Of a DNA stretch of 41,099 nt, positions 14,465 through 38,342 are shown one piece after another; within the stretch, counting starts at the first letter, position 1, and every line of letters starts with the position of its first letter. The stretch comes from Spizellomyces punctatus DAOM BR117 (taxonomy: Eukaryota). Both the position numbers and the translations under genes were made by a program. Under the pieces are notes generated by a model. That model saw only the letters and a list, made by a program, of their open reading frames with translations, was not told the DNA's origin and ran no database searches. Location: assembly GCA_000182565.2 (NCBI GenBank), contig KQ257460.1, one strand, 5' to 3'.

Positions 14465-14598
14465 NNNNNNNNNNNNNNNNNNNNNNNNNNNNNNNNNNNN
14501 NNNNNNNNNNNNNNNNNNNNNNNNNNNNNNNNNNNNNNNNNNNNNNNNNNNNNNNNNNNNNNNNNNNNNNNNNNNNNNNNNNNNNNNNNNNNNNNNNN
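14465..14598. other. Assembly gap (N run); hides the 3' end of UPRT
   Basis: Run of n characters. Confidence 1.
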
Positions 14599-26592: not shown

Positions 26593-27609
26593 CTAAAGGG
26601 TTTTATCATTCGGGCATGCCAATGCGTGTATTTGCGCCCAACCGTTATTGGCAATATATATTACGCCTGCTTGGCATTCGTCTAGTTGGCTGGGAAGGGG
26701 CCGGGTTGGAATACCATACTTTTCACACAGCATTGACACGGAATCACTCGGACGAATGAGTATTCCAACAGAAGCGGCATCTGCTCATGAAGCTTAATAA
26801 ACGATTAAGAGATTTGATGGTTTACCAAAAGAGTCTTACGCATGCAGGGAATGTCCGAAACGCTGAAAAAAGATGGTTTACATGTGCGAAGGAGAAATCA
26901 AACGTCTTGAAAAGCAACGATGTGGTTCTACGATACGCTTGGCATGTTCTGCTTACCTGTCTCCAATATATATACAACCATCTAGAGTTTCTAAGCGTTC
27001 TTGCAAACCTCGCAACTTATCAGATCCTGTCATGAAGCGTACAGAAAGTCCACCGGTGGATATGCCATGACTGTCATACTCCAGATCGTTGGCGAGAATA
27101 TTGGAGTCAGGAATACATATATTAGCAGCATTCAAAGTACCACGAATAATATCCATTGACCAATTGACTGAGGATAGGTAGAGAGCGACGTCATTCGATC
27201 GGTTCTCCAACCAACAATTTGCGAACGCGGCCCATCCTTTTTGTGTAGGAACACTTGCCCCCGCCGCAAAAAGACTTGCTCGCGTTGTCCCGCGGAGAGC
27301 GCCTGCTTCTATGACTCTAGATATTGATGCTCTCTCGACGGACTTGTAAGAGTCGAGATAAGCAAGCAAGTCTTCAGTGGTTGGTGGATCGTGGGTCGGC
27401 TCTGGCGGGGTGTGGTTTTTGTAGTTCTCCAGGTAAGCGTCTAGGAAAGAGGACCAGGCCGGGCATGTGGTGGGCCGTTTGGCGGTGGAGGCTATTACAG
27501 GTGTAGTATCACTGGTAGTAATAGTTTCGTCAAAGTCCAGGATGAGGCGGTCCAGTGTCGGCATGTTGGGTTCAGAGATCTCTGCTGCTTGCAACTGATC
27601 TCGTAGCAT
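26593..27609 (-). CDS. HAD-superfamily hydrolase (CTO1/YCR015C- or TH2 phosphatase-domain-like)
   Basis: HAD motif I LILDFDETIT, motif II SVNWS, ANDL, K in GSDK, motif IV YIGD-SVSD across an intron. Alternative start at 27564. Confidence 0.8.
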
Positions 27610-27734
27610 TCGAACGCGTGATCCTCACGTGCCTACATGCTGCGCGTCCTTCGCGTCCTGTCAGTTCCTCGTCGCGTTGAACGCTACGATGGGCAGGGGG
27701 AAGCGTACGTCCCCCTTAAAATACACACGAGTTC

Positions 27735-28028
27735 ATAACTCTTTACCTGGGCAAGGTAGCCCAGGGGTTAAGGCGCCGACGTGCACCTTAACAGAGCGGG
27801 TTCGAATCCCGGAACAGGTCGTCAGAGACTGATTGCTTGCGGCGGTAGGAGCAAGTGACGCCCCTTCGTGTGGGTCCCAGTGAAGCTTGTGCTGAGGGAG
27901 GGCTTTGATGAGCGACGTACCCGACTGACAGAATCTGCGTGTGGACGGAGCAGCTGCGCGCCCGAAAGGGCCCCCAATGATACCCGCCGGGTTGAGGGAG
28001 GGCGGGGAAGAAAGGGAATTATCCTTTT
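27735..28028 (+). ncRNA. Putative Pol III (type-2 promoter) structured ncRNA of about 290 nt, family unassigned
   Basis: A-box TAGCCCAGGGG (27757-27767), perfect B-box GGTTCGAATCC (27799-27809), multiple GC-rich stems with G-U pairs favouring the + strand, pairing 5'/3' termini, and TTTT at 28025-28028. Confidence 0.7.
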
Positions 28029-28167
28029 GTTCAAGACAAATAAAAGTAAAATGTCCCATACTTTCATTATATTCCTGTGCCAGCACACCTCAAAGCTCAT
28101 AGTGTAAAAAGATGTGTGCGAGACGACGCGTACAACATACGTGGTCACCGTCTCACATATCTCTACT

Positions 28168-29745
28168 ATGCCCGATCTGACAACGGATTTCTACGCCATC
28201 CTTAAATCCCGACATGCTGCTCGCTCCTTGGCACACGAAGGTGCACCTAATAATGCCAATATCTCTGCTACCTCCATTCTGCGAAAAAAGAGGCGAAAAT
28301 CTCACAGTGAACGTGGGGATGCCTTCTTGAAAGAGGCATATCGGCTGGTAAGCATTGTAGAAATACAGTCAGTGACAAAGGAAATGCGGGCGTAGAAATT
28401 CAGATCCGGTGGAGATATGGGTTATGAAGGATAGCGTTTTCAACAGTGTTGGAAAGGACTGTGAAGAAAAGCAGTCACTAATGAGAACGTCTTCAGCTGG
28501 AGCATGTCAATCAACTCCGGTACTTTCTCCTGCGAGCCCGAAAGTACTATCTGGACACTGGCCGGCATGTGACGTCCGCGAAACCACTTTCAGAAGGCGA
28601 ACTGGCGACAGATGAGCATTACGCACGCCAAAAAGATACTCTGCCCCTCCTGAAGATGCTCCCGCAACTCAAAAATATGACGGATAAGCAGCGTGTGGAG
28701 CTAGATATGCAGACACAGATCCTCGTAGAGACATTTCTAAAGCGGGTGGCAGTTTTGTCTCAGCTTGGAGGTAGAGTGCTTTCTTTTTCACTTTGAGACG
28801 ATGCAGGGTCTGATGTTGAAGTGTCATCTCAGAAAATCTGTCGAATGCCCCACCAAAGCCGGCCTTTCTACTTTCATTTCTGAGTACTGATGAAGATTTG
28901 CACCAGAGGATGCTTCGTGAACACCGAAACTCAGTCATATGGTTGCTCCGGAAACGATTGATGGACGTTTCTAATATCCAGAAGGATATGCAAGAACGTT
29001 TGATGCAGCGAAGACTTAGTCGGGAGGACACGTAGGTGTTATGGATGAAATGTAAGGAACGGATCTAGTGGCTAATCGACCTTACATGCAAAAGATATTT
29101 CTATAAAGGGGTGAATGCTACAAAAACTCGGCCGACACCTCTATCGCCTGCTACCGCCGAACAGGAAGACGCTCATGATCTTTCTCTTGCCCAGTTGACA
29201 TCGAAACTCACCAGTTCATTAACGGGAGGAAATCCCACCCCACTGCCGCGTTCTAAATCAAGCTCGGCAGAGTCTCTTGATCAAAGGGATTCAAGGGCCC
29301 TTGCATTGCAGGAGCGGGTGGAGGACAATGATGTGGCGTCCCAACTGGAACCCCAGGAACGACAGCTTCTGGAATCCGAGAATGCGGCATTACTGGAGGA
29401 GCTGGAAAGTAGTATTGACCAAGTGCGGTAAGTTACATGCTGTTGGGCTGAACAACGCAAGTTGAGCCGATCCTGACACGCTCGCATTGTTGTCCCGCCA
29501 GAGAAACAACCCAATCCCTCAATGTGATCTCTAGTCTGCATTCACGACTTAGTCACGAACTCCAATCCCAATCAGAGACCATCGGATTTTTGTATGATGA
29601 TGCCTGGCGGAGTACCGAAAGTGTGAAGAATGCGAATCTCCAGCTCATTAGCGCACAAAAGCACTTTGGCGATGCAAGAATTTGGGTCTTGTTATTCTTA
29701 GTGATTGCCAGTGCTATTCTATGGTTCCTCGATTACTACGGATAA
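28168..29745 (+). CDS. UFE1: ER Qa-SNARE syntaxin-18/Ufe1
   Basis: MPDLTTDF...DAFLKEAYRL N-terminus, MTDKQRVELD, HRNSVIWLL, SNARE heptads (LLESENAALLEEL...QSETIGFLYDDA...NLQL) and C-terminal TM helix WVLLFLVIASAILWFLDYY. Confidence 0.88.
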
Positions 29746-32349: not shown

Positions 32350-32623
32350 GGTTGGAGAGTAACTGTCTGCCGATTGCAGGTAAGATGAGGCTGTTATAAA
32401 AAGCGGCTAGAAACAAAGAAGCTCAACAACAAACACTTGTCGTCGGAACACCGAGGAGTTCACACGTGACGAGGCTTAATCATTTACCCATTTTAGGAAG
32501 AATTTGGCTCTGTCTCCAAACGTCAGGATTCGAGCCAACAACGCTCTTCATAATCCTGCACGCTCCCCGATCCTGGTAGGATCGCGCGCTTTACGTTCGG
32601 TCCATCGGCAGATGGAATGAAGG

Positions 32624-34768: not shown

Positions 34769-34868
34769 NNNNNNNNNNNNNNNNNNNNNNNNNNNNNNNN
34801 NNNNNNNNNNNNNNNNNNNNNNNNNNNNNNNNNNNNNNNNNNNNNNNNNNNNNNNNNNNNNNNNNNNN
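34769..34868. other. Assembly gap (100 N)
   Basis: Run of n characters. Confidence 1.
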
Positions 34869-37526: not shown

Positions 37527-38342
37527 NNNNNNNNNNNNNNNNNNNNNNNNNNNNNNNNNNNNNNNNNNNNNNNNNNNNNNNNNNNNNNNNNNNNNNNNNN
37601 NNNNNNNNNNNNNNNNNNNNNNNNNNNNNNNNNNNNNNNNNNNNNNNNNNNNNNNNNNNNNNNNNNNNNNNNNNNNNNNNNNNNNNNNNNNNNNNNNNNN
37701 NNNNNNNNNNNNNNNNNNNNNNNNNNNNNNNNNNNNNNNNNNNNNNNNNNNNNNNNNNNNNNNNNNNNNNNNNNNNNNNNNNNNNNNNNNNNNNNNNNNN
37801 NNNNNNNNNNNNNNNNNNNNNNNNNNNNNNNNNNNNNNNNNNNNNNNNNNNNNNNNNNNNNNNNNNNNNNNNNNNNNNNNNNNNNNNNNNNNNNNNNNNN
37901 NNNNNNNNNNNNNNNNNNNNNNNNNNNNNNNNNNNNNNNNNNNNNNNNNNNNNNNNNNNNNNNNNNNNNNNNNNNNNNNNNNNNNNNNNNNNNNNNNNNN
38001 NNNNNNNNNNNNNNNNNNNNNNNNNNNNNNNNNNNNNNNNNNNNNNNNNNNNNNNNNNNNNNNNNNNNNNNNNNNNNNNNNNNNNNNNNNNNNNNNNNNN
38101 NNNNNNNNNNNNNNNNNNNNNNNNNNNNNNNNNNNNNNNNNNNNNNNNNNNNNNNNNNNNNNNNNNNNNNNNNNNNNNNNNNNNNNNNNNNNNNNNNNNN
38201 NNNNNNNNNNNNNNNNNNNNNNNNNNNNNNNNNNNNNNNNNNNNNNNNNNNNNNNNNNNNNNNNNNNNNNNNNNNNNNNNNNNNNNNNNNNNNNNNNNNN
38301 NNNNNNNNNNNNNNNNNNNNNNNNNNNNNNNNNNNNNNNNNN
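37527..38342. other. Assembly gap (N run)
   Basis: Run of n characters. Confidence 1.

Follow-up and report, generated by a model that had tools for sequence, protein, structure and literature searches.

What does a tRNA-type promoter transcribe at a locus where no tRNA can be recognized? The question is posed by an intergenic segment (27735-28028) in a 41,099-nt stretch of contig KQ257460.1 from the chytrid Spizellomyces punctatus DAOM BR117 (assembly GCA_000182565.2), the whole of which is called the window below. A first-pass annotation, made from the letters of this stretch alone, had placed here an unassigned RNA polymerase III (Pol III)-type RNA gene on the plus strand, and the core of this proposal is supported: a transcript maps to the segment, an assembled RNA contig ends on its TTTT run, and no Rfam family accounts for it. 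We consider it fairly probable that the locus is a Pol III RNA gene of the BC1 type, tRNA-derived and lineage-restricted, namely a tRNA gene with a newly acquired 3' body. The analysis is of a single sequence of this gene.

The transcript and its limits emerge from public sequencing runs, which were searched with 27735-28030. Nine of the 24 runs listed, from four named studies, hold the segment. In seven of them half or more of the sampled words are present, and for runs X1-X5 the share of these words is 79-86% (counts from the run search alone); one holder (X8) is a soil metatranscriptome. Four runs (X22, X7, X6, and X8) were aligned to 27500-28300. X22 contributes 1549 raw RNA reads, with a mean depth of 281-634 in the bins across 27743-27904 that then declines through 210, 120, and 69 to 45 (27986-28012); the depth is zero in the bins of 27500-27688 and 28067-28300, where both neighboring genes have their first exons. 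After a non-genomic prefix of about 10 nt, present on every read, 363 of these reads start at 27755 (208 reads), 27756 (62), 27759 (64), or 27762 (29). The assembled contigs comprise 27754-27920 in X7, 27815-28028 in X6 (214 nt, the last base being the last T of the TTTT run), and 27844-28016 with one difference in X8. Since two further X6 contigs, one stopping at 27563 and the other starting at 28148, carry the 5' parts of the flanking genes without any difference from the window, X6 is apparently a cDNA library of the same species. The stable RNA is the segment from 27754/27755 to about 28028, which gives a length of ~274 nt instead of the ~290 nt originally estimated, and it is a discrete transcript. 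It is assigned to the plus strand on grounds taken up below, together with the antisense alternative.

The promoter-like elements and the end of the gene lie where the first-pass annotation had put them, viz., an A box, a perfect B box within a T-arm hairpin, and a terminal TTTT (Table 1). Judged against the two box consensuses, the A box TAGCCCAGGGG agrees with TRGCNNAGTGG at 10 of 11 positions and the B box GGTTCGAATCC with its consensus at all 11, the distance of 31 nt between them being of the tRNA type. The window and 300 mononucleotide shuffles were scanned for a composite signal, namely an exact B box that has a T stem of four or more pairs and is preceded, 25-60 nt upstream, by an A box with no more than one mismatch. 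The window contains one such signal and the shuffles contain none, and there is no other exact B box in the window. One near-B box on the minus strand (32526-32536, one mismatch) was set aside, as its surroundings are not tRNA-like. The TATA-like element TTAAAATA is a candidate TFIIIB/TBP site, judging by its position relative to the mapped 5' end. At the opposite end, the read depth drops from 45 to 9.3 across the TTTT run of the coding strand, on whose last base the X6 contig ends.

The first ~60 nt of the RNA have the layout of a decayed tRNA: the A box begins 3 nt in, a stretch of ~21 nt without a stem occupies the position of the anticodon arm, and a perfect T arm with a 7-nt loop follows. 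The 5' GGUAGCC has no pairing partner, so that there is no acceptor pairing. The absence of an anticodon arm and of an acceptor stem had been stated before and agrees with the result of ARAGORN, which calls no tRNA gene in the window; the Rfam tRNA model likewise has no match at E≤10 in 27600-28150 or 27750-28032. What the RNA shares with a tRNA is the D-arm-like A box, the perfect T arm, whose loop is GUUCGA, and reads compatible with 1-methyladenosine (m1A) at position 58, but it lacks the two arms just named, carries a 3' extension of ~210 nt, and is called by neither ARAGORN nor Rfam.

The T loop is also one of the few places at which the reads vary. In X22, 1153 of the 1549 reads are at least 99% alike, and just three positions vary in at least 10% of the reads: 27805, the equivalent of A58 in the T loop (A>T in 31 of 241 reads), 27814, just past the T stem on its 3' side (50 of 106 reads with G in place of A), and 27992 (T>G in 6 of 46, the same fraction of 13% as at 27805). 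A GUUCRA motif in a 7-nt hairpin loop is described as a methylation site of TRMT6/61A even outside tRNAs (bioRxiv 10.1101/202747), and m1A is described as causing misincorporation and arrest in RNA-seq, a signature lost in a trm6 knockout (PMC4787781). The GUUCGA context of 27805 fits this motif. Because the A>T change sits on the A58-equivalent of that loop, this one read signature suggests that the T arm folds in the living cell and that the modification machinery handles it like that of a tRNA, with m1A at the A58-equivalent (m1A58). As for the A>G at 27814, A-to-I editing, another modification, or two expressed copies or alleles are the options.

The remaining ~210 nt of the RNA belong to no described family. 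Across the whole window no Rfam family reaches its gathering score, and at E≤10 in the two intervals named above there is no match to the signal recognition particle (SRP) RNA, RNase P, MRP, U3, vault, Y, or 7SK RNA models. Four weak matches far below their cut-offs were rejected, namely snoR32_R81 (minus strand, 28006-28078; 21.5 against 45 bits), Dictyoglomi-1, sR28, and a plastid 3'UTR hairpin. Within the RNA there is no match to the CR-I pattern GNAANNUCNGNG, no permutation of CCCTAA as a telomerase template, no Sm site, and no RUGAUGA C box. The body contains an 11-nt direct repeat (TGAGGGAGGGC) with copies 100 nt apart and a 10-nt repeat, CT(T/G)CGTGTGG, at 27864-27873 and 27935-27944 (71 nt apart), both of which suggest that it may have arisen by internal duplication. 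Two further motif pairs were observed in it. CAGGTCG (27815-27821) and ACGGAGCAG (27945-27953) resemble the two strands of the SRP54-binding symmetric loop in helix 8 of SRP RNA. At 27906-27928, UGAUGA and CUGA stand 13 nt apart and have the look of a C/D-type (k-turn) element, with no convincing flanking stem and no snoRNA family.

The T arm and the 7-bp GUUAAGG/CCUUAAC hairpin are the two candidate elements of secondary structure that we single out; all other pairings given here are predictions. No more than 2 kcal/mol separates the optimum from several folds that exclude one another, among whose elements are the T arm, local hairpins, and a long-range duplex between 27786-27801 and 27982-27997, and the 7-bp hairpin competes with a 3-bp pairing resembling a D stem. 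The domain closed by TCGTCAGAG/CTTTGATGA is predicted in the minimum-free-energy (MFE) folds of both the interval first annotated and the mapped RNA. The paired ends that had been proposed do not survive the mapping: the 5' arm ATAACTCTTT (27735-27744) of the supposed terminal stem ATAA-CTCTTT/AAAGGG-AATTAT and the 5' arm of CCTGGGC/GCCCAGG (27747-27753) both lie upstream of the mapped 5' end, and these pairings are therefore not part of the RNA. In place of the terminal stem, the U tail can pair locally in the predicted fold as AAAGGGA-AUUA-UCCUUUU.

Table 1. Positions of the RNA gene, its promoter elements, and its sequence and structural features in the window.
Feature	Position	Strand	Basis
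TATA-like element TTAAAATA	27717..27724	+	Sequence; 31-38 nt upstream of mapped 5' end
Stable RNA, ~274 nt	27754..28028	+	Read depth, read starts, contigs of X7 and X6
A box TAGCCCAGGGG, D-arm remnant of tRNA-like head	27757..27767	+	Sequence, composite test
7-bp hairpin GTTAAGG/CCTTAAC	27767-27773 / 27786-27792	+	Sequence; pair probabilities 0.51-0.64
T-arm hairpin CGGG-TTCGAAT-CCCG	27797..27811	+	Sequence; B box GGTTCGAATCC at 27799-27809 inside
A58-equivalent of T loop	27805	+	Reads T in 31/241
Heterogeneous position A>G	27814	+	50/106 reads
Predicted domain closed by TCGTCAGAG/CTTTGATGA, two hairpins inside	27819-27827 / 27903-27911	+	MFE folds
Hairpin GCGTGTGG-(ACGGAGCAG)-CTGCGCGC	27937-27944 / 27954-27961	+	Sequence; pair probabilities ~0.55-0.59
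Tetraloop hairpin GCCC-GAAA-GGGC	27960-27971	+	Sequence; 2-nt overlap with GCGTGTGG/CTGCGCGC hairpin
11-nt direct repeat TGAGGGAGGGC, two copies	27893..27903 and 27993..28003	+	Repeat search
Predicted 3' hairpin AAAGGGA-AUUA-UCCUUUU	28011..28028	+	Fold; takes in TTTT 28025-28028

The locus has the traits of a Pol III gene with a hybrid promoter. From established Pol III biology, we propose that TFIIIC would bind the A and B boxes within the degenerate tRNA remnant, with the TATA-like element helping to position TFIIIB, and that Pol III would initiate at the purine at 27754/27755 and terminate in the TTTT run. The head would stay on the stable RNA, its T arm being probably tRNA-like in fold and methylated at the A58-equivalent, and the U tail would be either bound by La or sequestered in the predicted 3' hairpin. 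As a guess, the RNA might be the scaffold of a small ribonucleoprotein (RNP), in which the tRNA-like elbow could act as a handle for tRNA-binding factors of modification, export, or perhaps the ribosome. What the data show is the transcript with its ends, the promoter-like elements, and the lack of a family match; the dependence on Pol III, the m1A58 mark, the formation of an RNP, and any role in translation are inferences.

This organization is reminiscent of the BC1/ID elements of rodents, in which a Pol III RNA has a 5' domain of decayed-tRNA origin with a retained A/B promoter, an unrelated body, and a U-run end. The chytrid RNA has the same tRNA-derived promoter head, unrelated body, and U-run end, but BC1 is ~150 nt long with an A-rich center, whereas the RNA described here is ~274 nt long and G+C-rich, has no A-rich tract, and comes from one copy in 41 kb. 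The vault and adenovirus VA RNAs are ~90-160 nt long, with internal A/B boxes, a U-run 3' end, and paired termini. The RNA likewise has A/B boxes inside the mature molecule and a U-run 3' end, but it is longer than these, and the proposed terminal stem falls outside it. With the 5' arm of that stem absent from the stable RNA and no fold rising above shuffled sequences, the VA/vault/7SK-like architecture suggested earlier finds no support.

Several observations weigh against a BC1-type gene. Its function is wholly inferred. A run of four T is a weak terminator by yeast standards, and a low read depth continues past it (9.3, then 3.2, over 28029-28066), with five molecules ending at 28056, which suggests leaky termination. 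The stems picked out by eye (GTTAAGG/CCTTAAC, TCGTCAGAG/CTTTGATGA, GCGTGTGG/CTGCGCGC, GCCC-GAAA-GGGC, and CCCGCC/GGCGGG) can indeed be located in the sequence, yet taken together they give no thermodynamic signal: the folding z-score of the plus strand against shuffles is -0.14 over 27735-28030 and +1.16 over the transcript as mapped. The minus strand, at -1.61, does somewhat better than its shuffles. No homologue from another species came out of scans of metagenomic, prokaryotic, and viral sequences or of translated-frame searches. Of the 1549 X22 reads, 1543 are first mates on the plus strand, which by the convention of many stranded libraries would denote an RNA of the minus strand. A minor second gene copy or allele could be the joint cause of the variants at 27805, 27814, and 27992, as the equal minor fractions at 27805 and 27992 hint; this would weaken the case for m1A58 and leave room for a small repeat family. 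Finally, the restriction of the X6 contig to 27815-28028 is also what a processed body without its head would give.

The repeat family leads to the rival that fares best, though we hold it to be unlikely: the locus would belong to a tRNA-derived short interspersed nuclear element (SINE) as one of its copies, and perhaps as the master copy that is transcribed, with a tRNA-related head, an unrelated body, a short tail, and a partner long interspersed nuclear element (LINE). The layout is of the SINE type, in that the RNA begins at a tRNA-like head with A and B boxes and continues into an unrelated body of ~210 nt; several near-identical copies could account for the three heterogeneous read positions, and all the aligned contigs end inside the element or at its edges, as repeat boundaries would also cause. 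Fungal tRNA-related SINEs with target-site duplications are described for Aspergillus fumigatus (PMC5063351). However, the window holds one copy, BLASTN of the RNA against it yielding otherwise only chance matches of at most 15 nt, and none of the six direct-repeat families in 27600-28200 brackets 27754-28028 in the manner of a target-site duplication. There is also no A-rich or simple-repeat tail, the gene ending in its own T run, the reads have the homogeneity described above, and the translated searches with the minus-strand frame returned no ORF-annotated copy.

The head is at issue in a second rival, which we regard as rather improbable, that of a leader-type or dicistronic Pol III gene in the style of RPR1, SNR52, tRNA-snoRNA, or tRNA-5S genes, whose product would be the ~214-nt body cleaved after the T arm. 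Among such genes as presented in PMC2566860 are yeast RPR1, whose first 84 nt contain a promoter of tRNA-like type, SNR52 and ZOD1, which like RPR1 have upstream A/B elements, leader-tRNA dicistronic genes, the tRNA-5S and tRNA-RUF70 genes of Yarrowia, and plant tRNA-snoRNA genes. All of these share with the present gene a 5' tRNA-like A/B block and a downstream part without a promoter of its own, but there the leader or tRNA is cut off, whereas here the head is found at full depth and offers no acceptor stem to RNase P or RNase Z. That the X6 contig covers exactly 27815-28028, beginning 4 nt past the T stem, and that the depth is 106 at 27814 as against ~310 in the adjacent bins would suit cleavage at this point. 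The read depth over the head is nonetheless at least that over the body, the 363 reads counted above start at its 5' end, and the X7 contig runs unbroken across the putative cleavage site. Moreover, none of the six read starts with the best support in X22 is at 27815, and the simplest reason for the start of the X6 contig is the A/G site at 27814, an expected assembly bubble. For the body, Rfam offers no family at all, the snoRNAs, RNase P, and MRP included. In the BC1-type reading, the tRNA-like head is a retained part of the stable RNA and not a leader that is removed.

A more elaborate proposal, to which we give only a slim chance, builds on the motif pairs of the body: the gene might encode a chytrid-specific hybrid RNP RNA that joins a modified tRNA elbow to a ~210-nt body with the SRP54-like pair and the C/D-like UGAUGA...CUGA. 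In the way of the SRP Alu domain and of the tRNA-like RNA in the trypanosomatid SRP, its head might dock at a ribosomal site for tRNAs or factors, so that the RNA could act as a translation brake (e.g., in dormant zoospores) or as a non-canonical SRP-type RNA.

It is very improbable that the transcript is a minus-strand RNA, made by Pol II or otherwise, with the A box, B box, and T run being coincidental. Besides the first-mate orientation in X22 and the somewhat better fold of the minus strand, this reading could draw on a 118-codon frame that is open across the region and on the AT-rich stretch past 28028. The discrete, plus-strand-compatible RNA is nevertheless assigned to the plus strand on four grounds: the orientation of the A box/B box/T-stem composite, with its absence from all 300 shuffles; the end of the X6 contig exactly on the final T of the TTTT run; the position of one of only three variable sites, which coincides with the T-loop equivalent of A58 and on the plus strand is an A>T change; and the failure of the coverage to reach the ATG of the minus-strand frame (~28059), a frame that has no homologue. 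This frame (27733-28089) lies antisense to the whole RNA gene; translated searches gave no homologue among 18 candidates and none in 1.84 billion representatives, so that automated annotation could wrongly list it as a hypothetical protein.

The SRP of trypanosomatids has a tRNA-like partner RNA. A highly divergent SRP RNA, in which a tRNA-derived head stands in for the Alu domain and a large insertion divides helix 8, is the least credible of the readings considered: the size class, apparent abundance, Pol III features, tRNA-like 5' domain, and helix-8-like motif pair with flanking bases (UCGUC/GACGG) able to pair would be compatible with it, and basidiomycete SRP RNAs are described as having been missed computationally owing to helix 8 insertions (PMC4605306), but no Rfam SRP model matches at the gathering score or at E≤10, the CAGG and AGCA motifs stand 123 nt apart and not across the GNAR tetraloop of a helix 8 hairpin, their CAGG-stem...stem-AGCA arrangement, spotted post hoc, recurs in 136 of 5000 dinucleotide shuffles and is not significant, forcing a helix-8-like stem costs ~11 kcal/mol, UGUNR, a motif that in the Alu domain lies between helices 3 and 4 (PMC4605306), is found only at RNA positions 115 and 186 and not between the hairpins of the head, and the chytrid SRP RNAs known to date are reported in the same source to have metazoan-like Alu domains, which are absent here.

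Searches for relatives of the gene in other genomes were made with motif patterns. A scan of metagenome contigs for the B box combined with CAGGTC and ACGGAGCAG gave three loci, all of them chance matches in a non-fungal tRNA array and none a homologue, and a pattern specific to the head had no match in prokaryotic genome contigs or in viral contigs. The three loci (L001, 1700-2250; L002, 1680-2230; L003, 1420-1970; on contigs of 127, 4.7, and 5.2 kb, respectively) carry an identical dense array of short tRNA-like genes.

The RNA gene is a G+C-rich island (60.6% as against 46% for the window) between a minus-strand gene of the HAD family and a plus-strand gene resembling syntaxin-18/UFE1, the two neighbors that had been named from the sequence. 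Both identifications hold with Pfam matches that lie below the cut-offs: PF12710 for the HAD gene, which starts at 27564 (E=1.1e-05; 26.4 bits, just under the cut-off of 27), and Syntaxin-18_N for the other, in two exons (E=2e-04 and 1.8e-03). The nearest named relatives of the HAD protein come from Spizellomyces sp. 'palustris' (a hypothetical protein, 90% identity) and then Phlyctochytrium arcticum (42%), which points to a Spizellomyces-like chytrid as the source of the window. Elsewhere in the window, runs of N at 14465-14598 (134 nt), 34769-34868 (100 nt), and 37527-38342 (816 nt) may be gaps or masked stretches.

To our knowledge, hardly any fungal Pol III RNAs are recognized beyond tRNA, 5S, U6, SRP, and RNase P RNAs and a few yeast oddities, and we found none in print for chytrids: no paper listed in a literature search brings Spizellomyces together with SRP RNA, RNase P, 7SL, tRNA-like, or polymerase III, and one that was listed and names S. 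punctatus is a review of spliceosomal introns. The gene described here is a clean case, with mapped ends, a readable promoter, and a tRNA relic that seemingly keeps a tRNA-type modification, in an organism that is now transformable. In the case of a SINE, the phylum would gain an early record of this type of element. If the gene is single-copy and conserved in Spizellomycetales, it would show how an early-diverging fungus has made a new RNP RNA out of a tRNA gene, and its promoter and terminator would be ready Pol III elements with which to express guide RNAs in chytrids.

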